From NCBI RefSeq assembly GCF_964204645.1, contig NC_134026.1, positions 11,989,950 through 12,053,949 on the forward strand: a stretch of DNA of 64,000 nucleotides, in the 5' to 3' direction. The DNA is from Tubulanus polymorphus. Lineage: Eukaryota > Animalia > Nemertea. The first letter of the stretch is position 1. The number at the start of each line of letters is the position of its first letter. Below are positions 1-63,537 of this stretch, one piece after another. A program made the translations under genes and the position numbers. The notes under the pieces were generated by a model that worked only from the letters and a program-made list of their open reading frames with translations, made no database searches and was not told the origin of the DNA.

Positions 1-37
1 TCATCACCACAAGTAATTTTTTTCCCTAATAAATGGG
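1..37 (+). repeat. Inner part of left TIR of copy A, including the T-run and ATAAATG start of the first ORF
   Basis: TCATCACCACAAGTAATTTTTTTCCCTAATAAATGGG matches the inverted copy at 15839-15875 and the copy in E (from 63139). Confidence 0.9.
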
Positions 38-359
38 AGATAGAAAAGCATTCTTAGCAACAATAAATAACAGAATAAAACCAGCAAAAAAACAATTTGA
101 AATAAAAAAGTTAGTTGATGTTACAAAAGAAATTGAACATAAAATATTGAAATTAGAAAAGATAAAAACTAAATATGGAGAGAAAGTATCAGCTAATTTA
201 AGCTACTGTAATGTTAGTACATCGCGAGAATTTAAAGTGTTTTTACCCGATAAATGGGTTTCATTGAGTATGGAGGAATTGAAAGATTTAGAAGGATTTA
301 AAATAATCTATCATGGGAAAAATGAAGACGGTCATCATGATTTAGAAATTGTTGATTAA
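33..359 (+). CDS. Small beta-rich Polinton protein (KKL...TKYG...VFLP), putative OB-fold ssDNA-binding protein
   Basis: Intact 108 aa ORF; clear homolog at 48271-48624 (NKYG, TYLPDRF, YKGKNEKGHHEI). The fold assignment is inference. Confidence 0.6.
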   Translation: MGDRKAFLATINNRIKPAKKQFEIKKLVDVTKEIEHKILKLEKIKTKYGEKVSANLSYCNVSTSREFKVFLPDKWVSLSMEELKDLEGFKIIYHGKNEDGHHDLEIVD

Positions 360-516
360 ATTTAAAAAAAATAAATTAATAAAAATAATGAATATCTAGA
401 ATCCGAAATGACTTATCTGGACAATTTAATTGCTCCACATAGATAGACAAAAGTAGTGAGATATTCAATTATTTTTTTTCATACTCATCACCACAAGTAA
501 TTTTTTTCCCTAATAA

Positions 517-1209
517 ATGGAACCAGAACAACCACAAACTATCAATATTACAAATAACACTGGCGTTATAAACATATACTACAAGAAGTGTTCTAAATGT
601 GAATTAGATAAATCATTTACAGAATTTAGTAAGCGTAAGATTAGCAAAGATGGTTTTCAAAATTGTTGTAAAACTTGTTTTAAACTATATACCAAACAAT
701 ATCGAGAAGATAATAGAGAATCTTATAATGATTATATGACAAAATATATGAGAGAAAGATATCAAACAGATCTTAATTTTAGATTGAAACAATGCTTACG
801 GTCTAGATTAACACAATTATTCAACAAAGAAACACATTCAGAAACACTATCTAATTTATTGGGTTGTTCAGATGAATTTCTCAAATCATGGATAATATAT
901 CAATTCGACGATAAAATGAATATAGATAATTATGGTGAATACTTTCATATTGATCATGTGTTGCCGATTTCTAAATTTGACATGAATGATGAATATGATA
1001 AGAAGCAAATCTAGAACTGGAGAAATTTAAGGCCTTTAGAAAAGAAAGAAAATATAATTAAATCTAACAAACTAGATATGAAATTATATTCAGAACAGTT
1101 AACAAAGGCAAAGAAATTTATTGATCAATGGAACAATAATCCAAATAATGAACGATACGTTGAGGAATCCGAAATGACTTATCTAGACAATTTAATTGCT
1201 CCGCAGTGA
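517..1209 (+). pseudogene. NCLDV-type HNH endonuclease with N-terminal CxxC zinc ribbon; in-frame TAG at 1012-1014
   Basis: KKCSKC...CCKTC, LGCS.EFLKSWI, YFHIDHVLP, then (W>stop)NWRNLRPL...ENIIKSNK; the C homolog has TGG at the stop position. Confidence 0.8.
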
Positions 1210-1245
1210 GATATTCAATTATTTTTTTGCTTTTTTTCTAAAATA

Positions 1246-1599
1246 TTAATCCATTTTTTTTATTGTCAATTTTGGAATTTCAGAAGTACTTTCATTTTTG
1301 ATAGCAGTTGGTTCAGAATTACTAATATCATGAATTTTATTTGATTTCTTATACCAATTACACCCAATCAAAATGAATACAATTACAAATCCAACTGTAA
1401 AATATAAATATTTATCAAATATTCTACTATCAGAAGGAGTAGAAATAACAATATTTTCACCATTTTTATTAACATTTTTATTACTCATTTTTTCTTTTAC
1501 AGCTTTTTTATATTCTTGTGATTTAATTCCTAATTGCCGAGACCATTCAATTTGTTTCTGAGTTCTCGGTTTTTTCTTCACTTCTTTCACCTCGCTCAT
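1246..1599 (-). CDS. Single-TM membrane protein with basic N-terminus
   Basis: 117 aa; hydrophobic YLYFTVGFVIVFILIGC; homolog at 57899-58267. Confidence 0.7.
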   Translation of the reverse strand: MSEVKEVKKKPRTQKQIEWSRQLGIKSQEYKKAVKEKMSNKNVNKNGENIVISTPSDSRIFDKYLYFTVGFVIVFILIGCNWYKKSNKIHDISNSEPTAIKNESTSEIPKLTIKKMD

Positions 1600-2137
1600 T
1601 TATTATAGAAATATTTTTACTTTCAATATTTGAAAATGTTATAACTCCAGTTGATAATAATGTCATAAATCCACCTAATTGAAATGATAAATATCCAATC
1701 CATTTATTTAATTCAGTCATAACTAAATAATCATTTTTTAAATCGGAATATAATCTATTTTCATCTTCAATTGGTAGTATATAATTACATAATTTACTAT
1801 AACCTTTTACTACATTTTCTGATATCGCGTCATTAATTCTAGCTGTTCTCGCGGCTTCATAAATCTTAAATAATCTAATAATTTCATCTGATTTCATTGT
1901 GTCTAATTCATTATAAGTTAAATTTTTACTAACAAAATTTTTACATTTTCCAGATGCTATTAATATTTCTAATTGATGTTTACAATAAAGATAATATTCA
2001 TAATTATTATTTGTTGTAACATTATTTAAAGCACCATCATCTGGAATTAATTTTGTTTCTGTTATTCCTAAATCATCTAAAGTTTTTTCAATTGGAACAT
2101 CACCATTTTTAGATTTTATTTTCTTTTCACCTACCAT
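1547..2137 (-). CDS. Conserved Polinton hypothetical protein with C-terminal hydrophobic segment
   Basis: 196 aa; homolog at 58260-58862 (LYSDLKNDYLVMTEL conserved). Confidence 0.7.
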   Translation of the reverse strand: MVGEKKIKSKNGDVPIEKTLDDLGITETKLIPDDGALNNVTTNNNYEYYLYCKHQLEILIASGKCKNFVSKNLTYNELDTMKSDEIIRLFKIYEAARTARINDAISENVVKGYSKLCNYILPIEDENRLYSDLKNDYLVMTELNKWIGYLSFQLGGFMTLLSTGVITFSNIESKNISIINERGERSEEKTENSETN

Positions 2138-2164
2138 TTATATAACAAAAAAATTAATTGTGTG

Positions 2165-2420
2165 ATGTTGCAACTAGAATTTAACTAGAATGTAACTAGA
2201 ATTCAACTAGATTAACAAGCTAGTTGAAATATTAGTGTTTTTGTTTATTTCTTGTTAAATCTAGTTGATTTTTTGTTTCAACTATTAACAACTAGAATTC
2301 AATTAGAATGTAACTAGAATTAAACTAGATTAACAAGCTAGTTAAAATATTGTTAAATCTATTTGATTTTTGTTACAACTACCAATAACTAGAATTCAAC
2401 TAGATTAACAAGCTAGTTGA
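2165..2420. repeat. Intergenic array of AACTAGAAT/AACTAGATTAACAAG units downstream of the ATPase
   Basis: Many ~10-bp AACTAGAAT units arranged in three larger blocks ending TAGATTAACAAGCTAGTT, interleaved with inverted TTGTTAAATCTA units. Confidence 0.8.
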
Positions 2421-2422
2421 AT

Positions 2423-3031
2423 TTAAATAAATTCATATTTAAATGGGTGTTGTAATCTAAATAGTAATTTTGATCTTTTAATATTTTTCAACTTATCCAT
2501 ATATTCATTATGTAAATCATGTGGAATAATATCATTTTCCTCAAGTGCATTTTTCATCGATTTTCTATCTTTATTGTAGAATAAAACTAGAAATCTAATG
2601 TTTTCTCTAAAATCTTTAACAATTGAATTATATTTTTGATTTAAAACCCAAGTTGTTATCCCAAAATGTCTTCCAGAGAAAGCCAAATAACATAACTCAC
2701 TTTCTCTAACTTTTGAATCATGTAGATTAGCACAATCATCTATGATAAATAATGTATTTGATCCTTTATAAATATCAATTGCTATTTTTATACAATTATC
2801 TAAATTTTCTTTTACTGTTTTAGGATCTAATATAATAAATTTATTATTTCTAGTAATGTTTCTATCATAAGTTTGATTAAATTCATATGTTGGACAAAAT
2901 AATACTATATTATCAAAATAGTTTTTGTAAACAGTTTCTAATAAATTTAATATAAAATAAGTTTTTCCACAATTTGTTACACCAGAAATTAACATATTAT
3001 GAGGCTCAAATATGAATAATTCCTTATTCAT
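2423..3031 (-). CDS. ATP: A32/FtsK-like DNA packaging ATPase
   Basis: Walker A GVTNCGKT, Walker B LFIIDD, GRHFGIT arginine motif, sensor Q in VLNQ. Confidence 0.93.
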   Translation of the reverse strand: MNKELFIFEPHNMLISGVTNCGKTYFILNLLETVYKNYFDNIVLFCPTYEFNQTYDRNITRNNKFIILDPKTVKENLDNCIKIAIDIYKGSNTLFIIDDCANLHDSKVRESELCYLAFSGRHFGITTWVLNQKYNSIVKDFRENIRFLVLFYNKDRKSMKNALEENDIIPHDLHNEYMDKLKNIKRSKLLFRLQHPFKYEFI

Positions 3032-4160
3032 TTATATATTTTTAATTTTACTTGATAATATCCATTCATTAAATTTATCCGGCCATCCAACCCATTTTAC
3101 TAAAGAATATTTTTTTCTTTTAACAGTTTTTGTTTTTAATACTTTTTCAATTTTATATTCTTGTTCTAGATTTTCAGTAGTTAAACTTAATTCTTCTTCG
3201 TAAAAGTAGCCATCAACTTCTTCACCATCTAAATCTTCTAATTTATAGACATATGGTTTTGTTGTTATTACCTTTTTTATTTTATATATTTCTCTAGTAA
3301 AATTTCGATCGTATCCTTTATCAAATATCTTTTTATACTTAGAAATTCTAACATTTTGACCAACTTTAAATTTAGGTTCACCAAAATCATCTACAAGAAA
3401 TGCTCCATATAAATTATTCCAAACAATTTCAGCATTTTCAGGTTTTCTAGCATCAATAGGTTTCATTCCAATAGAAGAATGATAAGAATTATTATATCCT
3501 TCTATAAATTTTGGTAAAACATCAATCCATTTATAAGTATTATTTGCTGTGAAATATTTTGATATTCTTGTTCTCAATGTTCTATTAAATCGTTCAACAA
3601 CTGCTGCTTTTTTATCCGATTTTGTTGAAAAATATTTAATATTATGAAAATCTAAAAGTCCATGAACTAATGAATTATCAAATTCTTTTCCATCATCAAA
3701 TTGAATTTTTTTCTGGTTTTAGTTTACCACCTGAAAGAAATTTTCTTAAAACATGTGATGTTTGTGCAGCATCTTTTCTATAAAGTGGGAAGCTCCATAC
3801 ATAACGACTAAAAATATCAATTATATTCAATATCCACCAATAATCATTATTATCTTTTTTAAGATTTTTCATATCAATTAAATCTCCTTGCCACTGTTGA
3901 TCTACATAACTTACCATAGTTTTACGAGTTTTATATTTTCTAACAATTTTTTTATGTGTTGTATATGTTGGTTGTTCTAACATAAATTCATTTATATCTT
4001 TGTATTTAACTAAATTTTGTGGGATTATCTTATCTAATTTATCTAGTTTTACTTTACGCCATATATTTTTAGTAGAAGAATAAGCAACCGAACTCTCAGG
4101 GTTGTAATATAAATTTCTTAAATATTGTTCTTTAGTATTAGGAGTTTTTTTACCACTCAT
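3032..4160 (-). pseudogene. INT: Retroviral-like DDE integrase with C-terminal chromodomain; frameshift near 3710 in a homopolymer
   Basis: WQGDL, IDIFSRY, QFDDGKEF, VVERFNRT; chromodomain YKIEKVL...LVKWVGWPDKFNEWI; split over ORFs 3696-4160 and 3032-3577. Confidence 0.92.
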
Positions 4161-4190
4161 TTATATATCCTTAATTTTAACTTTATATTT

Positions 4191-5438
4191 CTAATATTGA
4201 ATACTATCTAATTGTGAATTTACAATATTTAATTGTGCGTCAGATATAATATAAATATGCATTTTAAAATTTTTGATTCCCTTTTTCTTTTTCATAAATA
4301 ATTGGATCCCATCTTTTGTATTTTGTAATTTTATCCCAGAACCATGTAATGAATTATCTTCAGTTGTTCTAAAATCTACCCATAATGCATATTTATTACC
4401 GGTATAATAATCAATTTGATTAATGTTACAATTTTCAAATGATTTTACTTTTTCATTCATAAAATGTTTTTTAATTTCTACCCATTGATCTATCATTCTC
4501 ATTGCTTGACAAAATATTTTATTTGCTATTCCTTCGATAGTTATTTCTACTTTTGTTATTTCAGGATTATAATAATTATCAACATTTATTGCGCCATTAG
4601 TATACGTTCCAATAGTAAAAAATATTAATATACCTTTAATAGATCTTCTAGGAAAGTTAATATTCTCATTTATTATTTCATCATTTGCATTAATAGTTAC
4701 AGTTTTAAATTTATCAATATAATCATATAATAATGAAAATCCTTGATTGTATTGAGTTTGAATTGTTCTAGCAATATTTTCATCAGTTACTGTATCATAT
4801 TCTAAACATATATTCGATAATTTATAACTCATATCTTTATTAACGCTAGATAATACAATTTCATTTACAGGAGCAAATGTTATCTCAAATATAATATCTT
4901 CTTGAATTGCGTATTTATATAAAGGAGCATTATTATTTATCAATTCAAAGTCTAATGGAATTTTATATTTGCTTCCATATATACTTTTTATCAATTTATC
5001 TACATCATTAGTTAATATTGCGCTATTAGCTTCTGATCTTAATTTATTTTGGTTTTCTGATTGGATTCCTTGAAATATCATATTATTTCTATTTTCTTTT
5101 GTTAACCATAAATCTTTATAGTGCATAAATAAATTATAATCATCTAATGAGAAAACTGTTTCTGGTCCAATCTTTATTGTTAACTTTTTAATCAAATATC
5201 TTCCAACATTATCAACAACATAATTATTATTATTACCGATTACTTTTATATCGGCTGATAAATAAATACTGTTTGGAACATAAAAAGTATTTTGTGTTAA
5301 TCTAGGAATTCTAACGTATAAAGTTTCATCAGGATTAATATTTGAAGGGTTATGAGTAATTATATGATGTGATCTTTCTGCTTTAATAGCATTAGATATT
5401 CTAGAAATCTTAGAAGGACTTATATAACTCCCACTCAT
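4191..5438 (-). CDS. PY: Major capsid protein (double jelly-roll), intact 415 aa
   Basis: Size, position and beta-rich motifs (YKIPLDF, FEITFAP, YKLSNICLEYD, PRRSIKGIL, YALWVDFRT, LHGSG); near-identical copy at 53831-55078. Confidence 0.85.
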   Translation of the reverse strand: MSGSYISPSKISRISNAIKAERSHHIITHNPSNINPDETLYVRIPRLTQNTFYVPNSIYLSADIKVIGNNNNYVVDNVGRYLIKKLTIKIGPETVFSLDDYNLFMHYKDLWLTKENRNNMIFQGIQSENQNKLRSEANSAILTNDVDKLIKSIYGSKYKIPLDFELINNNAPLYKYAIQEDIIFEITFAPVNEIVLSSVNKDMSYKLSNICLEYDTVTDENIARTIQTQYNQGFSLLYDYIDKFKTVTINANDEIINENINFPRRSIKGILIFFTIGTYTNGAINVDNYYNPEITKVEITIEGIANKIFCQAMRMIDQWVEIKKHFMNEKVKSFENCNINQIDYYTGNKYALWVDFRTTEDNSLHGSGIKLQNTKDGIQLFMKKKKGIKNFKMHIYIISDAQLNIVNSQLDSIQY

Positions 5439-5458
5439 TTATTTAACAAAAAAATTAA

Positions 5459-6879
5459 TTATTTATTTTTTATCATGTTTACTAACCCAAAAATAATAGC
5501 ACTTACAACTGTAATTAAAAATAAAATAATATGTTCAGCAGCAAAGTTAATAATGTTTCCTGCAGATTTCAATATAAAACCAACAATTGAAGCAATAACT
5601 CCTGGTAAAGCTGCAGCAGATTTCTTTGATAGTTCCCATAAATATTTTGCTAATTTCTTTAAACCATCTTTAACTTTATCTTGTATAGAATTATTACCTG
5701 GAGGTTTATCCGGTTTATTGGGAGTAGGAGTAGATTTCAAAGCATTTGATATTGCTAAACCAATTGTTGTAAATAACATAGTAACAGCTGTTAGAATTGA
5801 AAGAATTGTTATTCCTTCAAACTTAAATAATAATTTTATTCTATCTTTCAATGATATTCTAGAATCTGGTTTTATTAGATATCTTTTAAAAACATCTTTT
5901 AATCTATCAATATTATAATCATATGATTTTAATAATGATTTAATTTCTTTTTTTTGTAATTCTATGTTATATTCTAAATCATCTTTTTCTTTTTCTAAAC
6001 GTAATTCTTTTTGCCTATATTCTATTTCATCAATTACTTGATAATCTAAATCAGACTTTAATTGTTCTATTTCTTTATTTTTATCAGTTAATTCTTTTTC
6101 TAAAGTTCTAATTTTAAAATCTCTTATACTTTTATCATGCGCAATTTTATCAGCTTCATTTCTTATACTAATAATTTCTCTAATTGCTTTATCAGAAAAT
6201 ATATCTAAATCTTCTAATTGTTGATCTGTTGCATCAAGTAATCCATTTGGTAAAAGTTTTTCAGTTTGAACTTCTCTTGAATTAGGTTTACTATTTTTGG
6301 AATTAATAACTTCTTTAGGAATTTTTTTTTGTCTTAAATTTGCATTAATTATATCAAAAAATTTAGCATTTCTTTGTTTAAATTCTTTTATATTATCATC
6401 TCTTTCTTCTTGTGTAACATCAGTTATAACATCATCAATGATTTTCTTAATTCTATCTGGTTTAAATTAAAAGTTGATTGTGTTATTATTTTATCGCTAC
6501 TTTTAAGATTTGAAATCTTAAAATAATAGTCGCCTTTCAATTTCCAATAATAATCACCATTTAAATATTTTAAATCTTTTACTAAATAATCCATACCTTT
6601 ATTTGTTATATTGAAACCAGATCTTTTTAATATTGGTTTAAATTCGTGAATAATTTCATTATAATTGTATTCTTTTTCTGTTATTTCTGGTACTTCATTT
6701 TCAATACTTATCTTTGAACGTGTTTTGTCAATATATTGAGGTGTAGTTAAATTAGAATTATATGCTGTTTCATTACCATCATTAAAACTTGTTTCATCAA
6801 AATCAGGTGGTTGTTCATCAGTTATACCAGGTTCATCAAAAGGATCCATTCCAATATCTTCTACACCTTCTACTTCCAT
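5459..6879 (-). pseudogene. Large acidic/coiled-coil protein with hydrophobic C-terminal helices (putative membrane-active virion protein), fragmented
   Basis: Acidic N-terminus (DFDETSF), KE-rich coiled coil, C-terminal EGITILSILTA...AALPGVIASIVGFIL...; same layout in B and C. Confidence 0.7.
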
Positions 6880-6895
6880 TTATATAATAAAAAAA

Positions 6896-8203
6896 TTAAA
6901 ATTTAAAATATAATATTCCTCCGATTACAATTCCTATACAAGTTATAGCTAATTTAGTATTTTCATGGGATTTATTATCATCATTTTGTTTAATTATATC
7001 ATTTTGAATTTTATCAGTTCTATTATTTTCTGATGTATTGTAATCTTTTATTTTAGAATCATTAACCAATTTAATATTCTTAGTTTTAGTTTCTGTTGAT
7101 TGAATATGTTTTTTATTTTTTTCACCTTCCATTAATTTTGGAGCAGTAATAATCTTTTTATTTATATCATTCAATCCAAATGAATTATTTATTGTTGCAG
7201 TTTTAATTAGATTATTATAACCAATTATGTTTCCCATCTTTAATACTAAATCATTAGAAATAATTAATAGATTAGGGCCTATACAATAATTAAGTCTTAC
7301 ATGAGATTTATCTAAATAATTTTGATATCTTATAATGTTTTCTGGAATCGATCTATTTTTATCATCATGTATGGAATCTTCAAATAATACTTTGAATTGT
7401 TTCTGCGCATCGAATGAAGTGTTATCATTTCCAATTATTGGGGATCTTGTTTCAACTTGGGCGCCTAGAATACATATCAAATAAATTCTAATAGATTGAT
7501 TTATTCTTTGTATACCTGATTTTGTAAAACCTTCACCATTTTCTAAAATGAAATTAACCCAACCATTATTATTATCAATTTTATGATTATGATAAGCTGA
7601 AATTCTATGCATATAATCAATTCTTTTTATTTCATACTCTTCACCAACACTTTGCAATTTACCATGCGCTCTGAAATCGGAATTAATATTTATATTAAAT
7701 TCATTACATATTTTATAAAACTTAGATATATTAATATTATTATCCAATTCTTTAAAATATTTAGACCCGGGTAAAGGACATTCTAATTCATTTAATATTA
7801 TTCTGATTTGAAAATATGTGTGAAATCTAAATATTGTGTGAATTAATTTTAAATCAGAATACTTCAAATTTTTATCTAAGTTATTTAAATGATCATTCCA
7901 ACTTATTCCACATCCTGTTGTTGCACAATAAACAGCAAAATTTAATTGATTCTGCCAATATTTCATATTAGATTTTACTTTATATATATGATATTCATCC
8001 CGAGTAAAAGTAACTTCATATGTATTAAATATATTTTCCATTTTAGAAATAAAAAACTGTGATTCATTAACATAAATTTCTAAATTAGTTAATGAATTTA
8101 AAACTATATTTTTATATGTAATATTTTTCTTAAAATCTATTGCCGGAATATTATATTTAATTGATTTATTATATTGGAAAGCTTTTGGAAAACTATCTGC
8201 CAT
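6896..8203 (-). CDS. Conserved Polinton protein (YWQNQLNFAVYCAT motif) with C-terminal TM anchor
   Basis: Intact 435 aa; ends LAITCIGIVIGGILYFKF; homolog at 50894-52309. Confidence 0.75.
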   Translation of the reverse strand: MADSFPKAFQYNKSIKYNIPAIDFKKNITYKNIVLNSLTNLEIYVNESQFFISKMENIFNTYEVTFTRDEYHIYKVKSNMKYWQNQLNFAVYCATTGCGISWNDHLNNLDKNLKYSDLKLIHTIFRFHTYFQIRIILNELECPLPGSKYFKELDNNINISKFYKICNEFNININSDFRAHGKLQSVGEEYEIKRIDYMHRISAYHNHKIDNNNGWVNFILENGEGFTKSGIQRINQSIRIYLICILGAQVETRSPIIGNDNTSFDAQKQFKVLFEDSIHDDKNRSIPENIIRYQNYLDKSHVRLNYCIGPNLLIISNDLVLKMGNIIGYNNLIKTATINNSFGLNDINKKIITAPKLMEGEKNKKHIQSTETKTKNIKLVNDSKIKDYNTSENNRTDKIQNDIIKQNDDNKSHENTKLAITCIGIVIGGILYFKF

Positions 8204-8219
8204 TTATATAATTAAAAAA

Positions 8220-8654
8220 TTAATAATTTATTAATTCTTTTAATAATTTATCTTGTTCTTCAACTGTTATATGACCATTTAAACTTATTATATAATCTAG
8301 TGTGTTCTTTAATTTATTAATTTCTTTTATATTAGTTTTGATTTTTTCTTTATTACTTTTTATATTTAATTTTGAACTTATACCGGTTAAAACACTTGAA
8401 CTTAATCCTAACACACCAATTGATATAGCTAAAGGTGTTAATGGACTGAATATTGCTAGAAATGTTATTACAGAACTAATTGTAACCGAACCACTTATAA
8501 TCAAATAATATATAATTTTACTTTTTAAATATTTTTTCTTTTTTATCTTTAAGTCACTTTCAAATTCTAATATTTGTTTTTCTAAATATGTTTTTAATTT
8601 AGTTTTATTTATATCATGAGGAATAATATCAATACTATCAACTTTATCTTCCAT
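8220..8654 (-). CDS. Two-TM small membrane protein
   Basis: 144 aa; two hydrophobic stretches flanked by Lys-rich helices; homolog at 50442-50877. Confidence 0.75.
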   Translation of the reverse strand: MEDKVDSIDIIPHDINKTKLKTYLEKQILEFESDLKIKKKKYLKSKIIYYLIISGSVTISSVITFLAIFSPLTPLAISIGVLGLSSSVLTGISSKLNIKSNKEKIKTNIKEINKLKNTLDYIISLNGHITVEEQDKLLKELINY

Positions 8655-8673
8655 TTATTTAGAATAAAAATTA

Positions 8674-9096
8674 CTAATTAGTAAACTTATAAGCAACAAA
8701 TATAACAATAACTGTTCCACCTAAAATCCAAATTATTTCATATTTCTGTTGTTCTTTACTTGGGGTATAATAATCTGATAATTTGGGTTTGTATAGATGT
8801 AATTTTTCCTTATTTGTTACTGCGTTATATAAACTCATAGCATCATCAACTGATTGAAAATCTCTATGTGAAATCTTCTGATCATATAATTCTTTATTGA
8901 TGTAATCCATATAGTTTTGTCTTTTTTCTCTATATTCTTCTGCAGCTTTATTGTATTTCTCTAACGCTAAGTTATGTCTTCTTTGTTCTCCTAATGAACT
9001 ATTTTTATCAATATGTTTAAATAAATAACCACCACCAGTAAATGCTAAAGCGTTAACAATTGCCGATCCTATAATAGTTATAATTGCAGAAGCCAT
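8674..9096 (-). CDS. Small protein with hydrophobic N- and C-termini (NALAFTG...RHNLALE family)
   Basis: 140 aa; one aa difference from 49999-50421. Confidence 0.8.
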   Translation of the reverse strand: MASAIITIIGSAIVNALAFTGGGYLFKHIDKNSSLGEQRRHNLALEKYNKAAEEYREKRQNYMDYINKELYDQKISHRDFQSVDDAMSLYNAVTNKEKLHLYKPKLSDYYTPSKEQQKYEIIWILGGTVIVIFVAYKFTN

Positions 9097-9121
9097 TTAT
9101 TTAACAAAAAAAATTATGCAT

Positions 9122-9700: not shown

Positions 9701-9716
9701 TTATATAATAAAAAAA

Positions 9717-53761: not shown

Positions 53762-53830
53762 ACATGATATCAAAAGATATCAAGCAACCATGATATCAAA
53801 AAATAAATAATTAATTTTTTTGTTAAATAA

Positions 53831-55078
53831 ATGAGCGGGAGTTATATCAATCCTTCTAAGAATCATAGAATATCTAATGCTATTAAAGCAGAAAGATCAC
53901 ATCATATAATTACTCATAACCCTTCTAATATTAATCCCGATGAAACTTTATATGTTAGAATCCCTCGATTAACACAAAATACTTTTTATGTTCCAAATAG
54001 TATTTATTTATCAGCCGATATAAAAGTAATCGGTAATAATAATAATTATGTTGTTGATAATGTTGGAAGATATTTGATTAAAAAGTTAACAATAAAGATT
54101 GGTCCAGAAACAGTTTTCTCATTAGATGATTATAATTTATTTATGCATTATAAAGATTTATGGTTAACTAAAGAAAATAGAAATAATATGATATTTCAAG
54201 GCATCCAATCAGAAAACCAAAATAAATTAAGATCAGAAGCTAATAGCGCAATATTAACTAATGCTGTAGATAAATTGATAAAAAGTATATATGGAAGCAA
54301 ATATAAAATTCCATTAGACTTTGAATTGATAAATAATAATGCACCTTTATATAAATACGCAATTCAAGAAGATATTATATTCGAAATAACTTTTGCTCCT
54401 GTAAATGAAATTGTATTATCTAGCGTTGTTAAAGATATGAGTTATAAATTATCGAATATATGTTTAGAATATGACACAGTAACTGATGAAAATATTTCAA
54501 GTATAATTCAAACTAAATACAATCAAGGATTTTCATTATTATATGATTATATTGATAAATTTAAAACCGTAACTATTAATGCAAATGACGAAATTATTAA
54601 TGAGAATATTAACTCCCCAAGAAGATCTATTAAAGGCATATTGATATTTTTTACCATTGCAACATATACTAATGGCGCAATAAATGTTGATAATTATTAT
54701 AATCCTGAAATAACAAAAGTAGAAATAACTATCGAAGGAATAGCAAATAAAATATTTTGTCAAGGAATGAGAATGATTGATCAATGGCCAGAAATTAGAA
54801 AACATTTTATGAATGAAAAAGTAAAATCATTTGAAAATTGTAACATTAATCAAATTGATTATTATACCGGTAATAAATATGCATTATGGTTAGATTTTAG
54901 AACAACAGAGGATAATTCATTACATGGTTCTGGAAAAAAATTACAAAACACTAAAGATGGAATACAATTATTCATGACAAAGAATAAAGGAATCAAAAAT
55001 CTTAAAATGCATATTTATACTATATCTGACGCGCAATTAAATATTATAAATTCACAATTAGATAGTGTTATGTATTAA
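53831..55078 (+). CDS. PY: Major capsid protein, intact 415 aa
   Basis: Near-identical to 4191-5438. Confidence 0.85.
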   Translation: MSGSYINPSKNHRISNAIKAERSHHIITHNPSNINPDETLYVRIPRLTQNTFYVPNSIYLSADIKVIGNNNNYVVDNVGRYLIKKLTIKIGPETVFSLDDYNLFMHYKDLWLTKENRNNMIFQGIQSENQNKLRSEANSAILTNAVDKLIKSIYGSKYKIPLDFELINNNAPLYKYAIQEDIIFEITFAPVNEIVLSSVVKDMSYKLSNICLEYDTVTDENISSIIQTKYNQGFSLLYDYIDKFKTVTINANDEIINENINSPRRSIKGILIFFTIATYTNGAINVDNYYNPEITKVEITIEGIANKIFCQGMRMIDQWPEIRKHFMNEKVKSFENCNINQIDYYTGNKYALWLDFRTTEDNSLHGSGKKLQNTKDGIQLFMTKNKGIKNLKMHIYTISDAQLNIINSQLDSVMY

Positions 55079-55110
55079 AATTTTAACTTTAATAAAAAAT
55101 CTTATATTAA

Positions 55111-56019
55111 ATGGAAGGAGGTAAAGTATATAAACATATTCCATACATCGATACACATGAAAATAATGATGGTTTATATTATGTAATACCTTGTAATATA
55201 GCTTTGATATTTGATCCTATTTTCAAAATTTATAAAACTAAACTAATAGAAATCGATAATAATAAAAGTTGTGTTGTTGATAATTTAAGTAATGTAATTG
55301 ATAATAATGTAATACCTACTACTTCTAATAATATAATACCTACTACAGTAATACCTACTACTTCTAATAATATAATACCTACTACAGTAATACCTACTAC
55401 TTCTAATAATATAATACCTACTCCTTCTAATAATATAATACCTACTACTTCTAATAATATAATACCTACTACATCTAATAATAAAATAATATTAGATGTT
55501 AGTAAAAATAGAAATTATTGTGGTTATTATAAAGGTGAATTTTCAAACGCTCCATCAAATTGGAATAAACATATGAATACAAATTCACATATTACTAATG
55601 TTATAGAACGTGTTGGTTTAAAAGAATTTATAGAACACCCATTTAGATATGTTACAAAGTTTGTTTCAAATAAAAAAGTAAATGGTAAAGAATTATATGA
55701 AGATTTTTTATTAGCAACACTTAATAAAGATGAATTAGATTTAACTGATGCTAATGAAATATTAGGATCAAACACTGTAAATGAAATATTAGGAGCAAAC
55801 ACTAATAAAGATTCTATGCAACATAAAGTAGAAAATAATGATAAATTTGATTGGATGAATAATTATAAAAATGAAACAAATATTGATGATTCGGCAAAAA
55901 AGGTGAAAAATAAGTATATCAATAAAGAATTAGAAGAAGATACGTTAGAGAATTTGAGAAAATTGTTAGGGCATGATAGTGAAAGTGATTCAGAAATTGA
56001 TTATCTAACACTCGAATAA
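55111..56019 (+). CDS. Hypothetical protein with IPTTSNNI repeats and a degenerate U1-like zinc finger
   Basis: 302 aa; tandem repeat at about 55310-55485; YCGYY...WNKHMNTNSH. Confidence 0.6.
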   Translation: MEGGKVYKHIPYIDTHENNDGLYYVIPCNIALIFDPIFKIYKTKLIEIDNNKSCVVDNLSNVIDNNVIPTTSNNIIPTTVIPTTSNNIIPTTVIPTTSNNIIPTPSNNIIPTTSNNIIPTTSNNKIILDVSKNRNYCGYYKGEFSNAPSNWNKHMNTNSHITNVIERVGLKEFIEHPFRYVTKFVSNKKVNGKELYEDFLLATLNKDELDLTDANEILGSNTVNEILGANTNKDSMQHKVENNDKFDWMNNYKNETNIDDSAKKVKNKYINKELEEDTLENLRKLLGHDSESDSEIDYLTLE

Positions 56020-56078
56020 TAAAGGTTGAAAATTGTATAAAATAATAGTAAATAAAAAAGGGGGTTTTAAGTATTTAA

Positions 56079-56185
56079 GGTATCTAATGGGGTATCAGGT
56101 ATTAGGGTATCAGGTATTAGGGTATCTAATAGGGTATCAGGTATTAGGGTATCTAATGGGGTATCAGGTATTAGGGTATCTAATA
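56079..56185. repeat. GGGTATCAGGTATTA/GGGTATCTAAT tandem repeats at a convergent gene junction
   Basis: Visible 15- and 12-bp units downstream of the ATPase stop. Confidence 0.8.
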
Positions 56186-56202
56186 CATAGATATATAAAT
56201 AG

Positions 56203-56814
56203 TTATTTTATAAATTTATATTCATATGGAAATTGTAGTCTCAGTAATAATTTTGAACCTTTATTATTCTTAAATTTATTCATATATTCATCGTGTAACT
56301 CAGTAGGTATAATTTGATTTTCTTCCAATGATTGTTGCATAGATTTTTTATCTTTGTTATAAAATAAAACTAGAAATCTAATGTTTTCTCTAAAGTCTTT
56401 AACAATTGAATTATATTTTTGATTTAAAACCCATGTTGTTATCCCGAAATGTCTCCCAGAGAAAGCTAAATAACATAACTCACTTTCTCTAACTTTTGAA
56501 TCATGTAAATTTGCGCAATCATCTATAATGAATAATGTATTTGATCCTTTATAAGTATCAATTGCTATTTTTATACAATTATCTAAATTTTCTTTTACTG
56601 TTTTAGGATCTAATATAATAAACTTTTTCATCTTAACTATATCTCTATTATATGTTTTATTCATTTCATAAGTAGGACAGAATAATATTATATTATCAAA
56701 ATGATTCTTATAAATAGTTTCTAACAAATCTAATATGAAATGTGTTTTACCACAATTGGTTACTCCAGTAACTAACATATTATGCGGTTCAAATATAAAT
56801 AAATCTTTATTCAT
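56203..56814 (-). CDS. ATP: Packaging ATPase, intact
   Basis: GVTNCGKT, LFIIDD, GRHFGIT. Confidence 0.93.
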   Translation of the reverse strand: MNKDLFIFEPHNMLVTGVTNCGKTHFILDLLETIYKNHFDNIILFCPTYEMNKTYNRDIVKMKKFIILDPKTVKENLDNCIKIAIDTYKGSNTLFIIDDCANLHDSKVRESELCYLAFSGRHFGITTWVLNQKYNSIVKDFRENIRFLVLFYNKDKKSMQQSLEENQIIPTELHDEYMNKFKNNKGSKLLLRLQFPYEYKFIK

Positions 56815-57892
56815 TTATTCTTTTAATTTTACTAGATAAAATCCATTCATTAAATTTATCATCATATCCTTTATATTTCACCAAAGAATACTTTTTTCCT
56901 TTAAGAGTTTTTGTTTTCAATACTTTTTCTATTTTGTATTCTATTTCATCTGGGTTTGGTACAAGTGATAATTCTTGTTCATAGAAATAACCTAATATTT
57001 CTTCATCTTTTAAATCTTCTAATTTATAAACAAAAGGTTTAGTTAATATTATCTTTTTAATCTTGAATATTTCTTCTGTAAAATTTGGGGTATAACCTTT
57101 ATAAAAGGTTTTTCTATATTTAGATATTCTAACATGTTGTCCAATTTTGAATCTAGGTTCGCCGAAATCATGTGTAACAAACGCTCCATATAAATTATTC
57201 CAAACTATTTCCGAATTATCTTCTTTTCTAGCTTGTATAGGTTTCATATTTATAGAACTATGTTTAGAATTATTATAACCTTTCACTAAATCATCTAAGA
57301 CATCGATATATTTATATGTTTCATTAGCAGTAAAATATTTCCACATTCTAGTTTTCAATGTTTTATTAAATCTTTCTATAATAGATGCTTTTTTATCTGA
57401 GTGTGTTGAAAAATAATCTACATCGTTATCAGATAATAGTTTTTTAAAATGTTTGTTATAGAATTCCTTACCTTCATCAAATTGTATCTTATCTGGAATA
57501 GCTTCTTTAAATATAGATTTAAAAGCATTTGTCACTTCTATACCAGTTTTATTTTTGATTGGAATTGACCATGCGTATCTACTGAATATGTCTATAACAT
57601 TTAATATCCAGAAATATCCTTTGTTGTGTTCTTCTAAGTTCTTCATATCAATTAAATCAGCTTGCCATTGTTGATCAATATATGAAACCATAACTTTTCT
57701 TGTTAAATAAGTTTTATCCATTTTCTTGTGGATTTGATATGTTGGTTGATTTTGTAACCATGATTTTAATTCACTATATTTTATACCACCATTATCAGAT
57801 TTAATTTTATCCCATAATTCTGTAACGTTAGAATATGATACTTCACTTTCCGGGTTATAATATAACTCTCTTAAATATTCTTCTTTTTTCAT
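56807..57892 (-). CDS. INT: Integrase with chromodomain, intact 361 aa
   Basis: WQADL, QFDEGKEF, IIERFNKT; chromodomain YKIEKVL...LVKYKGY...NEWI. Confidence 0.93.
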   Translation of the reverse strand: MKKEEYLRELYYNPESEVSYSNVTELWDKIKSDNGGIKYSELKSWLQNQPTYQIHKKMDKTYLTRKVMVSYIDQQWQADLIDMKNLEEHNKGYFWILNVIDIFSRYAWSIPIKNKTGIEVTNAFKSIFKEAIPDKIQFDEGKEFYNKHFKKLLSDNDVDYFSTHSDKKASIIERFNKTLKTRMWKYFTANETYKYIDVLDDLVKGYNNSKHSSINMKPIQARKEDNSEIVWNNLYGAFVTHDFGEPRFKIGQHVRISKYRKTFYKGYTPNFTEEIFKIKKIILTKPFVYKLEDLKDEEILGYFYEQELSLVPNPDEIEYKIEKVLKTKTLKGKKYSLVKYKGYDDKFNEWILSSKIKRINE

Positions 57893-57898
57893 CTTATT

Positions 57899-58267
57899 TT
57901 AATCCATTAATAATAATTTAGAATTAGTTTCAATGGTTTTAGGATTTGACTTATTTTCTGATATAATAGGTTTGTTGTCATTGGAATCGTCTTTATCATC
58001 GGATTTGAATTTTGATTTATATATTACACCGGATAATATAATAACTGTTACTAATCCAATTGTAATATATAATTTATAATTACTTCCAGCATTAGAAGAA
58101 TCAGATGGATTATCATTCGAATCAATATCAGATAATTTCTGTGATTCATTTATATCAGTTAATTTCTTTTTCTTAGCTTTTTTTAATTCTGACGATCTTT
58201 TACCTAATTCTCTTGCCCATTTAATTTGTTTTTCAGATCTAACCTTTTTCTTAACATCATCACTCAT
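57899..58267 (-). CDS. Single-TM protein
   Basis: Homolog of 1246-1599. Confidence 0.7.
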   Translation of the reverse strand: MSDDVKKKVRSEKQIKWARELGKRSSELKKAKKKKLTDINESQKLSDIDSNDNPSDSSNAGSNYKLYITIGLVTVIILSGVIYKSKFKSDDKDDSNDNKPIISENKSNPKTIETNSKLLLMD

Positions 58268-58862
58268 TTATTTTAGTTAATTTTTGTTCTGATTCATTTT
58301 CTGTTTCGACGTTTGGTTGTAGTACATCTGTTTTGTTCTTACCTGATTTATATTCCATAGGCTTGATGTTCGAAAATGTTATGACGCCGGTAGAAATTAA
58401 TGTCATAACCGATCCTAATTGAAATGAAGCATAACCGACCCATTTTTGTAATTCAGTCATAACTAAGTAGTCATTTTTCAAATCACTATATAATTTATTT
58501 TCATCATCAATTGGTATTAACTGGTTACATAACTTAGAATAACATTTGACAATACCATCACTTATAGAGTCGTTTATTCGGGCTAATCTTGCCTCTTCAT
58601 AAATCTTAAAATATTTTATTACTTTATCTGGTTTCATAGAGTCTAGTTCTTGAAAGGTTATTATTTTTCCTAAGAAGTCCTTAGATTTCCCGCCAGCAAT
58701 TAATAATTCAAGATGATGCTTACAATATAAATAGTATTCATAATCTATATTGTTATTAACTTGAATAGAATTAGAAACAACTGTATCTTTATTATCACTT
58801 ATACCCAAATCATCTAATGTCTTTTCAATATCAATATTATTCTTACTCGATTTCTTTGACAT
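58260..58862 (-). CDS. Conserved Polinton hypothetical protein
   Basis: Homolog of 1547-2137. Confidence 0.7.
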   Translation of the reverse strand: MSKKSSKNNIDIEKTLDDLGISDNKDTVVSNSIQVNNNIDYEYYLYCKHHLELLIAGGKSKDFLGKIITFQELDSMKPDKVIKYFKIYEEARLARINDSISDGIVKCYSKLCNQLIPIDDENKLYSDLKNDYLVMTELQKWVGYASFQLGSVMTLISTGVITFSNIKPMEYKSGKNKTDVLQPNVETENESEQKLTKINE

Positions 58863-59274
58863 TTATATTAGAGAAATTTAATAAGAAAAATATTATAAGT
58901 ATTATAAAATGATACTAGATAGTTAAAGTTAAAGAATTCTAGTATTAGTTATTGTTTTTTTATGTATTTTTTATTTGTGATATAAAGTATTCTTTTTTTA
59001 AAAGAAAATATTAAAAATATAATAGAAATAATAGATAGTTGAAGGTATGTAATTTTTATTATATTTTATTTAAATTAGGATTTAATATCACCATGTGGGT
59101 GCCGTACGGCACCATCTCACTACTATTGTCTATCTATTAGGAGCAGTAGTTATAACTGTCCAGATAAGTCATTTCGGATCCTCGATATCAAATCCTCAAC
59201 CGAAAATAAATTCAAAGAAACGACTGGTGGAAATATTATTTCATAAACAGATATATTTATTATACAAATTTTAG

Positions 59275-59493
59275 CGATCGATAATAGAACAATGGAGAAC
59301 AATAGAAATGCGGTCCAATCGGACCGGTTATTGCGCAATACACAGTTATATTTTTATTCTGTAAACTACAACATTCAAACATAGAACTGTAAACAATCAA
59401 TATTGAGCAGCTGTTTCAGTCAACAACGATCAATAATAGAACAATGGAGAACAATAGAAATGCGGTCCAATAGGACCGGTTATTGCGCAATAC
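59275..59493. promoter_or_regulatory. Duplicated ~67-bp motif cassette (AACAAT x2, GGTCC-N4-GGACC, TATTGCGCAATA)
   Basis: Two copies 152 bp apart in a non-coding region of C; regulatory role inferred. Confidence 0.45.
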
Positions 59494-59588
59494 TTAGTTA
59501 ACAGTAAACAATACAATATTAAAACAGATATATACAATCGAGATTACATTTTTGATATCTATATTACAAAGACCTTCAGTATTATAAT

Positions 59589-59909
59589 TTATAATTTTAT
59601 CCAGAATTCTTTGATTACTGGATTGTTTCTAATCATTTCTTCAATTTCTGGTAAATATCTGACTACTTCACTAAATGCTAATCCTAATATTTTGAGTTTT
59701 TCATATTTTATTAATCTACCTACTCTTCTCAGTTTTCTTTCAAAACTGGCACTGATATCTCCACTCATTTTCTTAGTTTTCGATTCTTTGAGTCCCAACA
59801 GCAATTTTAGTCGCGTTGCTGGTAATTTTGGTAATTGTAGTTCGCGCGGTAATTGTTTATTATGTATTACATCACTCAGAATTTTCACCATTTCTTGATG
59901 ATAGTCCAA
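59589..59909 (-). CDS. Hypothetical helical protein, probably the 3' part of a disrupted ORF starting near 60056
   Basis: 106 aa ORF; upstream TAAAATG at 60054-60060. Confidence 0.4.
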   Translation of the reverse strand: MDYHQEMVKILSDVIHNKQLPRELQLPKLPATRLKLLLGLKESKTKKMSGDISASFERKLRRVGRLIKYEKLKILGLAFSEVVRYLPEIEEMIRNNPVIKEFWIKL

Positions 59910-60400
59910 ATGTTCTTATAATTTTGTGAAGTTTGTTCGTCAATTACGAGAGTTTTATCCTCCATTTCTATTGATTCCTGAGTTTCACTATCCAGCAGCA
60001 ATCGTTCCTCACCCGTTGGTTGGCTTAGAATTTCTGGTTGATCTCTGTATTCCATTTTAATCTAAAAGATGTGAAAATGAATTACTGTACTTAAATATGT
60101 TTAAAGGTTTCCCTACTTCATAATAACTACAAAAAACGGTACTTAAATTTAGATTTAGAACTGTAAACTGTGTTTTGAGAGAGAATATCCAATACGTACT
60201 ATGTATGTGAAAGTTGATTTCTAACTGCCGACGTGGCGCACGTTCGACCAAACTAATTACTTCTGCACAGATGTTCTTTATGATGAAGTTAATTAATTCT
60301 TCAGAATTGAAAACAAGATATATTTGGCAACATATGTTTTAGTAGTAAGCAAAAGCTATGTATTATAGACATACAAAGCTCAAATAGAATTGCCAGCTTT

Positions 60401-61068
60401 CTAACCACTGATTAAAACCTCAGAATGCGGTTGATTCTGTGAAATACTATTCCATAATTCAACAAATGTCTTTGCTTTATCCAGTTGATCTAAATATAAT
60501 TTCATATCTAGTTTGTTAGATTTAATTATATTTTCTTTCTTTTCTAAAGGCCTTAAATTTCTCCAGTTCCAGATTAGCTTCTTATTATAATCATCACTCA
60601 TGTCAAATTTAGAAATAGGCAACACGTGATCAATATGAAAGTATTCACCATAATTATCTATATTCATTTGACTATCGAATTGAAATATAATCCATGATTT
60701 GAGAAATTCATCTGAACAACCCAATAGATTACAGATAGTGTTTCTGAATGTGTTTCTTTGTTGAATAATTGTGTTAATCTAGATCTTAAACACTGTTTCA
60801 ATCTAAAATTAAGATCTGTTTGATATCTTCCTCTCATATATTCTGCCATATAATAATTATAATGTTCTATATTATCTTCTCGATATTGTTTGGTATATAG
60901 TTTAAAACAAATTTTACAGCAATATTGAAAACCATCTTTGCTAATCTTACGCTTACTAAATTCCGTTAATGATTTATCTAATTCACATTTAGAACACTTC
61001 TTGTAATATATAATTATGACATCAGTGTTATTTGTAATATTGATAGTTTGTGGTTGTTCTGGTTCCAT
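60401..61068 (-). pseudogene. HNH endonuclease, frameshifted near 60730
   Basis: Highly similar to 517-1209 (MEPEQPQTINITNN..., YFHIDHVLP, WNWRNLRPL). Confidence 0.82.
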
Positions 61069-61148
61069 TTATTATACATATTTTTTTTACTAAATTGGTT
61101 AATAATTTTAGAATCCTCTTCCATTTCTTCGACCAACGTCATCCTTTT

Positions 61149-61400
61149 TCATTCTTCGTTGCTTTTGATAAATTGTTTCGATTCCTTGATATCAAATCTC
61201 TCAACGTATTGTTCATTATTTGGATTATTATTCCATAATTCAATAAATTTCTTTGCTTTTGTTAACTGTTCTGAATATAACTGTAAATATTCTAGTTTCA
61301 ATTTATTCTCTAAATGTGTTTTAGTTTTATTGTGTCTTGATTTTTGGGATTTATCTACGCTGATATTACATGTTGGGCAGTAGTACTTATTTGCTTCCAT
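61149..61400 (-). CDS. Small U1-like zinc-finger protein
   Basis: YYCPTC...SRHNKTKTH; tail LYSEQLTKAKKFI..WNNNPNNE shared with the tail of A's HNH. Confidence 0.6.
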   Translation of the reverse strand: MEANKYYCPTCNISVDKSQKSRHNKTKTHLENKLKLEYLQLYSEQLTKAKKFIELWNNNPNNEQYVERFDIKESKQFIKSNEE

Positions 61401-61480
61401 TTTAATACTAAATTTTTTATTAAAATTGATTTTAGAAGTTCAATGATTTATATTTTATTCATATATATGATTATTTTAAG

Positions 61481-61884
61481 AGTAATAGGGGTTTAGTTGT
61501 TTCGGGTTAAAGGTTGAATGGTCGAGTTCATTAATAACAAACATTAAAAGTAATTTAAAACTATAATATATTTTCATAACCGTGTGCATTTCAGTTGAAC
61601 AATAGAATAATTATTATTATTTGAATATATTTGATTATATGAATTTGTGTATTGTAAATAAATCAATTGGTCGCGGAGCGGAGCGGTAGCGAAGTGGAGC
61701 GACCAATTGATTTAACACCATATGCTTTTTAGATTATTGATATCTTAGAATAAATATTTAGTTTTAATATAAAATACACACGGTTATGAAAATATATTAT
61801 AGTTTTTAATTACTTTTAATGTTTTGTTTTTTAATGAACTCGACCGTTCGACCTTTGATCTGAAACAACTAAACCCCTATTACT
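61481..61884. repeat. 404-bp terminal palindrome of copy C
   Basis: Arms of about 110 bp (61481-61590 and 61773-61884) plus inner stem TAAATCAATTGGTCGC/GCGACCAATTGATTTA (61659-61714). Confidence 0.9.
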
Positions 61885-62727
61885 TATGTTACTGAACCAA
61901 TAATTGATTGTTCTGAACCAGTGTCTATTATCATCTTTAAACGCTGTCCGTTTATCTTCAACGATCGAATACACTTATTCTTATCGCATTCGTTCTTAAT
62001 AGTCCAAACAAAATCAGAATTTGAACTGTCCGAATCCCCGTCAGAAACATTTCGAACTTTACCGGGAGGTTTCGAGCTTTTCTTTTTGGACATTGACGTT
62101 GTTCTTCCACCTTTACGAGTGTCTGATTTCTTTTTACGGCATTTTCTAGCGTAATGTCCTTTCTTCTTGCAATAGGCACATTCTGCCTCTAAGGCACCAC
62201 ACGAGTCAGGTGCGTGGTCTTGCGGTTTCAAAAGTGCGTGCACTTTTCAAATATTTGTCTAGTGTCAAATCTTCCTGACCTAGGAATTTTACTCGGAGTT
62301 CATTACTACGGCACTTTTCAACGATCTGGTCTCTGATCATCTCAGACTCTTTGTTGCCATAGTCACAAGATCGGACAAGGTCTCTGAGTGCGGTAGCATA
62401 CTGGTCGATAGTTTCACTTTCATTCTGTGCTCGTTGGCGAAATTTATAACGTTCAGCTATAGTGTTCTTCTTTGGTTCGAAGTAGGCCTTCAATGCAGCC
62501 TTCGCTTCTGCAAACGAAGTCTTTGATCCAGGGAGTGCAGCAAACACCCTCTGAACAGATGCTCCCATACAATGGAGCAAAGTAGCTCTGCGTATCTTGT
62601 CCTCCTTCTGGTCCACGCCAGAGGCTACCTCGAAAAATTCGAATGAGGCCAGCCATGAACCCCATTCGGCTGCCAGGTCTGTGGCGTTCAAGTTCAACGG
62701 GGCCGGAGCCCGAAGATTTTCGGCCAT
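61885..62727 (-). pseudogene. gag: Gypsy gag (capsid, CCHC knuckle) and start of aspartic protease; frameshifted and cut by Polinton C
   Basis: EW..W...F, LLHCMG, ERYKFRQRAQ...ETIDQY, MIRDQIV; CAYCKKKGHYARKC; IIDTGS. Confidence 0.9.
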
Positions 62728-62851
62728 TTTAATTTTCACAGGCGGGTTGAATGTTTAACAATCGTACCTGTTTCGACGATCAAATTCGACCTCCAACGGA
62801 CGAAGAATACAAAAATACACCGCTCTATATCAACATTAGTGTTCCAAATTT

Positions 62852-62864
62852 ATCCTCGTCGCCA
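62852..62864 (-). other. Primer binding site, complementary to the 3' end of tRNA-Ser(GCU)
   Basis: TGGCGACGAGGAT 2 nt downstream of the 5' LTR on the minus strand. Confidence 0.8.
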
Positions 62865-62866
62865 TA

Positions 62867-63007
62867 TGTAGCATCGTCCAGCCAAGATGTTTCCGATATA
62901 AGATTAAGATTGATATAAAGATAAAGGTAGTAGTTTATTCATGGTTTCCGTTACAACGCTTTCTAGCCTGCGCCAGGTGGCAGCATCATACAATGTACTA
63001 TCCTACA
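62867..63007 (-). repeat. 5' LTR (141 bp)
   Basis: Matches 40271-40414; followed by TSD ATCGT. Confidence 0.95.
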
Positions 63008-63086
63008 ATCGTCAAGGTGTGTAATATCAGTACTTGTCCAATGAGATTGCAGAACTGTCGAAAGGGGAGAAATGCCTGAGCAAAGC

Positions 63087-63537
63087 AGTAATTGGAAAGT
63101 GGGCTTTCAGATCAGAGGTCGTGCGGTCGAGACACCACTCATCACCACAAGTAATTTTTTTTCCTAATAAATGGGAGATAGAAAAGGATTCTTAGCAACA
63201 ATAAATAACAGAATTAAACCAGCAAAAAACAATTTGAAATAAAAAAGTTAGTTGATGTTACAAAAGAAATTGAACATAAAATATTGAAATTAGAAAAGAT
63301 AAAAACTAAATATGGAGAGAAAGTATCGGCGAATTTAAGCTACTGCAATGTTAGTACATCGCGAGAATTTAAAGTGTTTTTACCTGATAAATGGGTTTCA
63401 TTGAGTACAGAGGAATTAAAAGATTTAGAAGGATTTAAAATAATCTATCATGGGAAAAATGAAGACGGTCATCATGATTTAGAAATTGTTGATTAAATAA
63501 GAAATAAAAATAATGAATATCTAGAATCCAAAATGAC
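63087..63537 (+). mobile_element. Polinton fragment E: complete left TIR plus first gene of family A
   Basis: Starts AGTAATTGGAAAGTGGGCTTTCAGATCAGAGGTCG...; 63139-63537 matches about 1-410; interrupts BEL pol. Confidence 0.88.
63171..63496 (+). pseudogene. SSB-like small protein, frameshift in an A-run
   Basis: Near-identical to 33-359 with one A missing near 63228. Confidence 0.8.

Follow-up and report, generated by a model that had tools for sequence, protein, structure and literature searches.

Nested Polinton-type elements of Tubulanus polymorphus carry gene starts resembling poxvirus late promoters

Related insertions in the window

The analysis concerns a stretch of 64,000 nucleotides from Tubulanus polymorphus (Nemertea), positions 11,989,950 to 12,053,949 of the forward strand of contig NC_134026.1 (assembly GCF_964204645.1), called the window below and presented over positions 1 to 63,537. 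It harbors a Polinton-type provirus integrated in many copies, whose genes mostly begin at the sequence TAAATG preceded by a run of T (T-run/TAAATG), and a small element sharing an end with it. A previous reading of the letters alone (the sequence-only reading) had listed five related and very AT-rich insertions, A to E. Both points hold: comparison of the window with itself revealed three long related copies (A, B, and C) and two short elements (D and E), and the GC content was 23-25% in A to D versus 38-39% in the two flanks.

1..15928, minus strand: element A, nearly complete Polinton with defects, truncated on the left by the start of the window
15929..28316, minus strand: element B, copy truncated at left and heavily broken
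35132..38247, plus strand: element D, 3.1 kb, non-autonomous and multi-copy, terminal inverted repeats (TIRs) of about 570 bp, right end without the outer 44 nt
46205..61884, plus strand: element C, left truncation inside the gene for protein-primed PolB (pPolB); open reading frames (ORFs) for major capsid protein (MCP), ATPase, and integrase intact
63087..63537, plus strand: element E, fragment of an A-type end, 94% identical to A 1-412

The three long insertions A, B, and C represent a Polinton-type provirus occurring in many copies, and all of them are broken. In each, core genes are interrupted or missing, and none of the copies in the window is free of defects. To estimate copy numbers, read depth was taken from a DNA run with the same species label, 12% of which was read. 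Depth over C was mostly 300-900-fold per bin (range about 97-1058) compared to 18-29 in the lowest host bins, corresponding to roughly 15-40 copies if the lowest host bins are single copy. The outer edge of the palindrome terminating C is the true end of many copies, as 379 reads cross from position 61884 into flanks that differ from one another. Molecule ends did not accumulate on C in the DNA reads, which are silent on free genomes in infected cells. Two small contig sets with the same species label (X7 and X8, the latter guessed to be RNA) yielded only 18-21-nt matches, on C and E, which have no bearing on expression.

Genes of the Polinton-type elements

The following genes were defined in element A.

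517..1197, plus strand: HNH/EndoVII homing-type nuclease, one internal stop
2423..3031, minus strand: A32-like packaging ATPase (PF04665, E 3.5e-13)
3032..4160, minus strand: RVE integrase with chromodomain, frameshifted
4191..5438, minus strand: MCP, predicted double jelly-roll (AlphaFold pLDDT 88.5)
5459..9343, minus strand: block of conserved uncharacterised genes arranged head to tail, four with predicted membrane helices
11843..15843, minus strand: pPolB with zinc finger and EndoVII domain, interrupted, starting at a T-run/TAAATG located in the TIR

A Pfam scan covered 51 ORFs of the window. It detected pPolB (PF03175, E 7e-19), an RVE integrase (PF00665) above cut-off in B and C, and zinc-finger ORFs. 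The integrase/ATPase block of C is inverted relative to A. The model of the A capsid protein (415-aa ORF) matched the MCPs of PBCV-1 (a Paramecium bursaria chlorella virus) and iridoviruses in Foldseek with E values of about 1e-17, and the double jelly-roll MCP by which a Polinton/Maverick is recognised was found on this predicted model (AlphaFold/Foldseek). The Mavirus MCP followed at rank 49 with E 1.6e-11, below those of PBCV-1 and iridoviruses. In the block from 5459 to 9343 every intact start carries T-run/TAAATG; one of its products, a conserved 435-aa protein (orf435, 6896-8203), has a C-terminal membrane helix and a pLDDT of 77.5, but no clear match in PDB or BFVD.

Several functions were looked for and not detected. 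No protease family was present among the 51 ORFs, neither an Ulp1/adenovirus-type protease nor a virophage maturation protease, A being nearly complete and the other copies truncated. An RNA polymerase was likewise absent, with no catalytic motif in six frames of the window and no Pfam family among the ORFs, in agreement with the sequence-only reading. The region 48642-49394 in C, a candidate for a further Polinton/Maverick trait, gave no significant family or PDB match, PDB sequence searches with the MCP, the intein-bearing ORF, orf440, and orf250 revealed nothing significant, and no relatives turned up in viral contigs searched with the MCP, an MCP alignment, the ATPase, or the integrase. 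A capsid protein 54% identical to that of A (P0046 cluster) occurs on short contigs of records labelled Bartonella sp.; it probably represents DNA of an animal host and would extend the lineage beyond marine samples.

A start motif restricted to one clade

In A, 15 of 21 ORFs of at least 100 aa start with TAAATG, and in C 11 of 18, versus 7-8% of all ATGs, so that the poxvirus-late-type gene starts described from sequence alone are confirmed. Several of the other starts in the window are internal methionine codons of broken genes. Out of 168 metagenome loci encoding a related capsid, the best 80 served for comparison. Only homologous genes whose first ATG agreed with the reference start were counted, the near-duplicates L002 and L016 were dropped, and loci above L080 were left out. 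By these criteria, 56 of 61 homologous starts were TAAATG in 16 loci (A and C of the window, the clade loci, and L038). The capsid family was further represented by 50 loci, in which the motif occurred at none of 127 homologous starts. A looser, earlier count gave 37/44 for the clade, 7/7 for L038, 0/25 for the sister group, 0/33 for AT-rich outgroups, and 1/153 for GC-rich outgroups. Other collections contributed 30 more related loci, in which TAAATG was found at 10 of 253 ORFs in sum. One locus carrying a protease gene, L083, has the motif at all seven of its genes.

The loci with TAAATG are those with at least 51% capsid identity plus L038, and their GC content ranges from 20 to 44%. Those with at least 51% identity form one branch (SH-aLRT 99) in a tree computed quickly from 75 capsid rows. 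As judged from these sequences, TAAATG is restricted to one clade of the capsid family, plus L038, independent of GC content. A link of the motif to an integrase lineage was also considered and is weakened by L087, L088, L105, and L106, whose integrases are 41-47% identical and which lack TAAATG.

Many relatives without TAAATG (L015, L016, L018, L030, L089, L090, and L092 to L096) are TATA-rich just upstream of the ATG. [quoted passage not shown] Different Polinton lineages may be wired to different helper classes.

Resemblance to poxvirus late promoters

With the first A of TAAATG numbered +1, a T is present at -10 in 51 of 57 gene starts of the clade, but only in 23 of 82 TAAATG sites not serving as starts (p 2e-13); in A the figures are 13/15 and 11/33, respectively. 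The base at -3 is a T in 57 of 61 starts of the TAAATG group versus a purine in 108 of 127 starts of the other relatives. According to the Kozak rule, a T at this position is a poor context for translation.

Seven motifs were searched upstream of 104 starts, and only a run of seven T was enriched (28 versus 6.3 in shuffled sequences). TATA, the upstream conserved sequence (UCS) of yeast plasmids, TAAG, TCTA, AAAATTGA, and YAG were not enriched; hence no TATA box and no yeast-plasmid, baculovirus, Cafeteria roenbergensis virus (CroV), or mimivirus motif stood out in these 104 starts. Late promoters of vaccinia virus consist of TAAAT(G) over the start codon, as described in two articles (PMC11980589, PMC5294985), and a conserved T at the tenth base upstream (PMC11980589). 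The upstream T peak of the elements falls within one base of it. Judged by sequence, the two signals share TAAAT(G) over the start codon, a T-run peaking about 10 nt upstream, and G or A after the ATG. Unlike the vaccinia late promoter, the element starts have an extra TAA at -17 to -15, similar to the AT-rich part of intermediate promoters. The polymerase of vaccinia virus initiates inside the AAA and, by slippage at TAAAT, produces a poly(A) leader (PMC6211774). The T at -3 could be tolerated because it would not be transcribed, if such a leader restores an A at -3.

Candidate polymerases and the helper question

The likeness suggests a Polinton-type virus with poxvirus-late-type starts, which for its expression probably relies on a co-infecting cytoplasmic virus of the poxvirus type as the source of RNA polymerase and late factors. 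Taking poxvirus and other helpers together, the motif very likely serves as the promoter of a cytoplasmic polymerase, and a helper of the poxvirus type appears the rather more likely source of it. Pox-like transcription supplied in trans had already been postulated in the sequence-only reading. Comparative support was gained for it from the clade specificity, the independence of GC content, the T at -10, and the context opposing the Kozak rule; the intein, HNH, membrane, and hairpin traits that had been cited as well lend it none. A deoxynucleoside kinase encoded in two clade loci, L003 and L011, was counted in favour of a poxvirus-type helper. In such a cycle, transcription would begin within the AAA, slippage would add a poly(A) leader, and the element would be replicated by its own pPolB and packaged in its own capsid within the factory of the helper. 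Its own integrase would return it to the host genome, where it would be silent. D would borrow the C-type polymerase and integrase via the common palindromic end. An antiviral benefit to the host is possible, and a role in host defence is rather doubtful.

A number of observations weigh against dependence on a poxvirus. Pfam scans of 51, 21, and 30 ORFs revealed no poxvirus transcription gene or other pox-specific gene; the A32-family ATPase is the sole pox-type gene seen, and it occurs in relatives without TAAATG as well. No helper sequence was present among the window and clade-locus ORFs scanned. Genes are spaced equally tightly in relatives without the motif (median 24.5 versus 25 nt). The sequence A(A/T)TAAA near stop codons is more common in the TAAATG group (34/61 versus 12/127, AT content uncorrected), which does not favour a cytoplasmic mode. 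Depletion of AATAAA in coding sequences did not separate the groups in a codon-shuffle test, splice donors did not separate them either, and TTTTTNT was depleted in all groups. No named poxvirus was among the 120 intein matches listed, the kin being inteins of Polintons and of PolB (e.g. Mimivirus), and the nearest atlas clusters of the HNH homologue P0271 belong mostly to Uroviricota (phage). A single origin of L038 and the clade was not rejected (p-AU 0.095), so that the 56 starts are not independent events. A motif this short and AT-rich may also reflect convergence with some other polymerase.

Such a polymerase might be cytoplasmic without being that of a poxvirus. Yeast virus-like elements combine a TAAAN initiator with their own polymerase (PMC6211774), egoviruses, the closest relatives of poxviruses, are found in marine sediments and have exchanged genes with polintons (10.1101/2024.03.23.586382), and the intein of B has kin in the PolB of giant viruses. 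The polymerase could then belong to an egovirus or asfarvirus relative, to a linear plasmid of the cytoplasm, or to sister copies with subunits of their own. On the other side, the yeast UCS was not enriched (3/104, shuffled mean 9.9), ASFV late promoters carry TATATA at the start site (PMC5294985), and the window is devoid of RNA polymerase motifs. Altogether, a source of this kind is fairly improbable. It is still less probable that the elements are nuclear and independent of a helper, with T-run/TAAATG acting as a lineage-specific initiator or translation signal for host RNA polymerase II, possibly together with a zinc-finger factor of the element. The presence of copies at many chromosomal sites, the chromodomain integrase, the zinc-finger ORFs, and the lack of a helper among the sequences scanned would fit. 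A T at -3 in nearly all starts opposes the purine kept by the relatives, however, TATA is not enriched in the 104 starts, and AT-rich coding strands of the clade contain 4.8 AATAAA per kb with no sign of avoidance. A trans-splice acceptor was rejected, since only 7 of 61 starts have an AG at a distance of up to 12 nt from the ATG.

Genes arranged head to tail in DNA of 76% AT could also suggest that TAAATG merely joins a stop to a start codon for coupled translation, or that it results from AT-richness alone. Both explanations are refuted and scarcely credible: the TAA serves as the stop of the upstream gene at few starts (2 of 16 for A, 1 of 13 for C, and 1 of 57 for the clade loci), AT-rich relatives lack TAAATG, and members with 40-44% GC keep it.

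Element ends and the companion element D

TIRs are present in A and D. In A they are simple, of about 100 bp, and their inner edge bears the T-run/TAAATG of the first gene at both ends. C and D end in palindromes.

61481..61884, unstranded: terminal palindrome of C, 404 nt, z -22.1
35132..35336, unstranded: terminal palindrome of D, 204 nt, z -21.7

Hairpin-forming ends had been proposed from sequence alone, and the palindromes of C and D (z about -22) bear this out for these two elements; A, B, and E have no terminal hairpins. A closed poxvirus telomere ends at the hairpin loop. In C and D the integration end is the base of the stem and not the loop, and together with the missing stems in A, B, and E this means that the hairpins are no evidence for a poxvirus. 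The terminal motif of C and D was absent from 111 related loci, and Rfam gave no match in the window. No element in the window has both outer ends intact, which bears on a 6-bp target-site duplication.

The outer arms of the two palindromes are related, and D is 82-87% identical to the end of C and to repeats located inside C (56025-56165) and A (2181-2219). D carries three orphan ORFs of 177, 72, and 83 aa without family matches, and no replication or capsid genes. Its internal depth of 71-343 versus 18-29 in the lowest host bins indicates many copies. With ends common to a larger element, no genes for replication or capsid, and multiple copies, D has the properties of a satellite; these sequence features are most readily explained by a non-autonomous element that shares the C-type end and is mobilised by C-type proteins. 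It had been described as sharing terminal and promoter signals. The C-type palindromic end is indeed present, but the full motif is limited to one of the three ORFs; the second has TAAAAATG, a TAAAA variant, together with the T at -10. Flip/flop isomers were not seen, as both D ends have the same orientation with arms 100% complementary. For the 177-aa protein no homologue was found among 1.84 billion representatives, and atlas matches with a score of 0.86 are a lead only.

A 24-bp tandem array is located inside D (36225-36549). Repeats and palindromes common to D occupy non-coding gaps of the window (2171-2420, 37233-37600, 56025-56180) and of other loci (L001:3684-3875, L003:9082-9359, L005:3163-3275, L083:4657-4840); they may be terminators, origins, or inversion sites.

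Overall, mobile elements are clustered in the window and nested within one another. Because B starts within its own repeat region right after the end of A, A was probably inserted into B. Two 144-bp repeats, 97% identical, flank Gypsy-like gag and pol remnants, and C is nested between them (40271-63007), as is an unassigned 501-aa ORF (44712-46217). A 247-bp insert (28010-28256) interrupts the terminal repeat of B; 222 reads skip it, so that many copies are without it. B is adjoined by a satellite with 60-61-bp units (28327-29262). A very high-copy host repeat is located at 43381-43729, and an exon-like piece (33805-34092) with a weak match to UPA-FIIND (E 0.012) is possibly a fragment of a host immunity gene.

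Intein, HNH nuclease, and membrane proteins

Only B contains an intein.

23487..24545, minus strand: LAGLIDADG intein at polymerase motif C of B, 353 codons, one internal stop

The intein (TIGR01445, 29 bits versus a cut-off of 24.5) had been taken for a giant-virus PolB type. It is real, but among the best 120 of 562 matches its nearest kin are other pPolB inteins (63% and 48% identity, best range 63-39%), Mimivirus PolB reaching 38%. Motif C is also the intein site in matching RNA-primed PolBs. In a FastTree phylogeny of 71 rows, pPolB inteins group together (support 99) among other PolB inteins, which points to past exchange between Polintons and large DNA viruses and not to the identity of a helper. 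The P0122 cluster comprises 136 pPolB proteins on long contigs in forms of about 1537 and 1191 aa, which suggests that the intein is still spreading among Polinton copies. P0127, a type II topoisomerase-like protein, also matches the B intein.

The HNH/EndoVII gene matches phrog_1035 (E 1.6e-17), PHROGs being unable to test a link to nucleocytoplasmic large DNA viruses (NCLDV), and it is present in 5 of 18 TAAATG loci versus 0 of 68 others. The NCLDV type proposed for it is not supported, the nearest clusters of P0271 being mostly those of phage. Of the many membrane proteins noted previously, a predicted helix was found in 5 of 19 tested ORFs of A and C, but three of the membrane genes (mem139, orf440, and orf485) are family-wide and occur in relatives without TAAATG. 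Intein, HNH gene, membrane genes, and hairpins do not point to a pox-like helper.

Comparison with known systems

The closest precedents are polinton-like viruses (PLVs) found in entomopoxvirus occlusion bodies from lepidopterans (AHEV_PLV1/2 and CBEV_PLV1; PMC11296320), which are likewise animal PLVs tied to a poxvirus and have an A32-like ATPase and a double jelly-roll capsid. They were co-sequenced with the occlusion bodies and all have an adenovirus-type protease, whereas the element described here, compared by description, is linked to poxviruses through its promoter signature and is a multi-copy RVE-integrase provirus in which no protease was found. The main text of PMC11296320 does not contain the word 'promoter'.

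Mavirus, which integrates in Cafeteria, encodes pPolB and an RVE integrase, and its promoters copy the late motif of its helper, the large DNA virus CroV (10.1101/068312). It differs in its protist host, its mimivirid helper, and its TCTA motif, which is not enriched in the starts of the clade. Its reactivation and defence were demonstrated experimentally; the T. polymorphus element is known from sequence alone, and its capsid model is closer to the MCPs of PBCV-1 and iridoviruses than to that of Mavirus. With Polintons/Mavericks ('adintoviruses', PMC8502044; Polintoviricetes, PMC11161782) it shares pPolB, RVE integrase, ATPase, double jelly-roll MCP, TIRs, and integration in animals. It is unlike them in that no Ulp1-type protease was found and in having several membrane-helix genes, two end types, one with a long palindrome, an intein at motif C, and TAAATG starts throughout a clade. 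Endonuclease insertions in pPolBs have been ascribed to intein invasions (PMC11161782), and the words 'promoter' and 'intein' were not found in passages of PMC8502044. Poxvirus-associated PLVs are thus already known from insects; a TAAATG promoter signature in Polintons was not found in print in the titles and abstract openings searched, most subscription journals lying outside their coverage.

Conclusions

Animal Polintons could be nuclear viruses that are self-sufficient or could parasitise larger viruses, and a clade-specific promoter of the poxvirus late type makes this question directly testable. Dependence on a poxvirus-type helper predicts such viruses in hosts where searches have found none. 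If a poxvirus-type helper is indeed used, the strategy of the integrated virophage would extend from protists to animals. It is a tentative suggestion that a widespread clade of Polintons integrated in animals represents provirophages of undescribed poxvirus-type viruses, forming an inducible antiviral layer and parasitised in turn by hairpin-ended satellites such as D. In that case, the kind of helper virus used by any Polinton lineage could be predicted from the motif near its gene starts.

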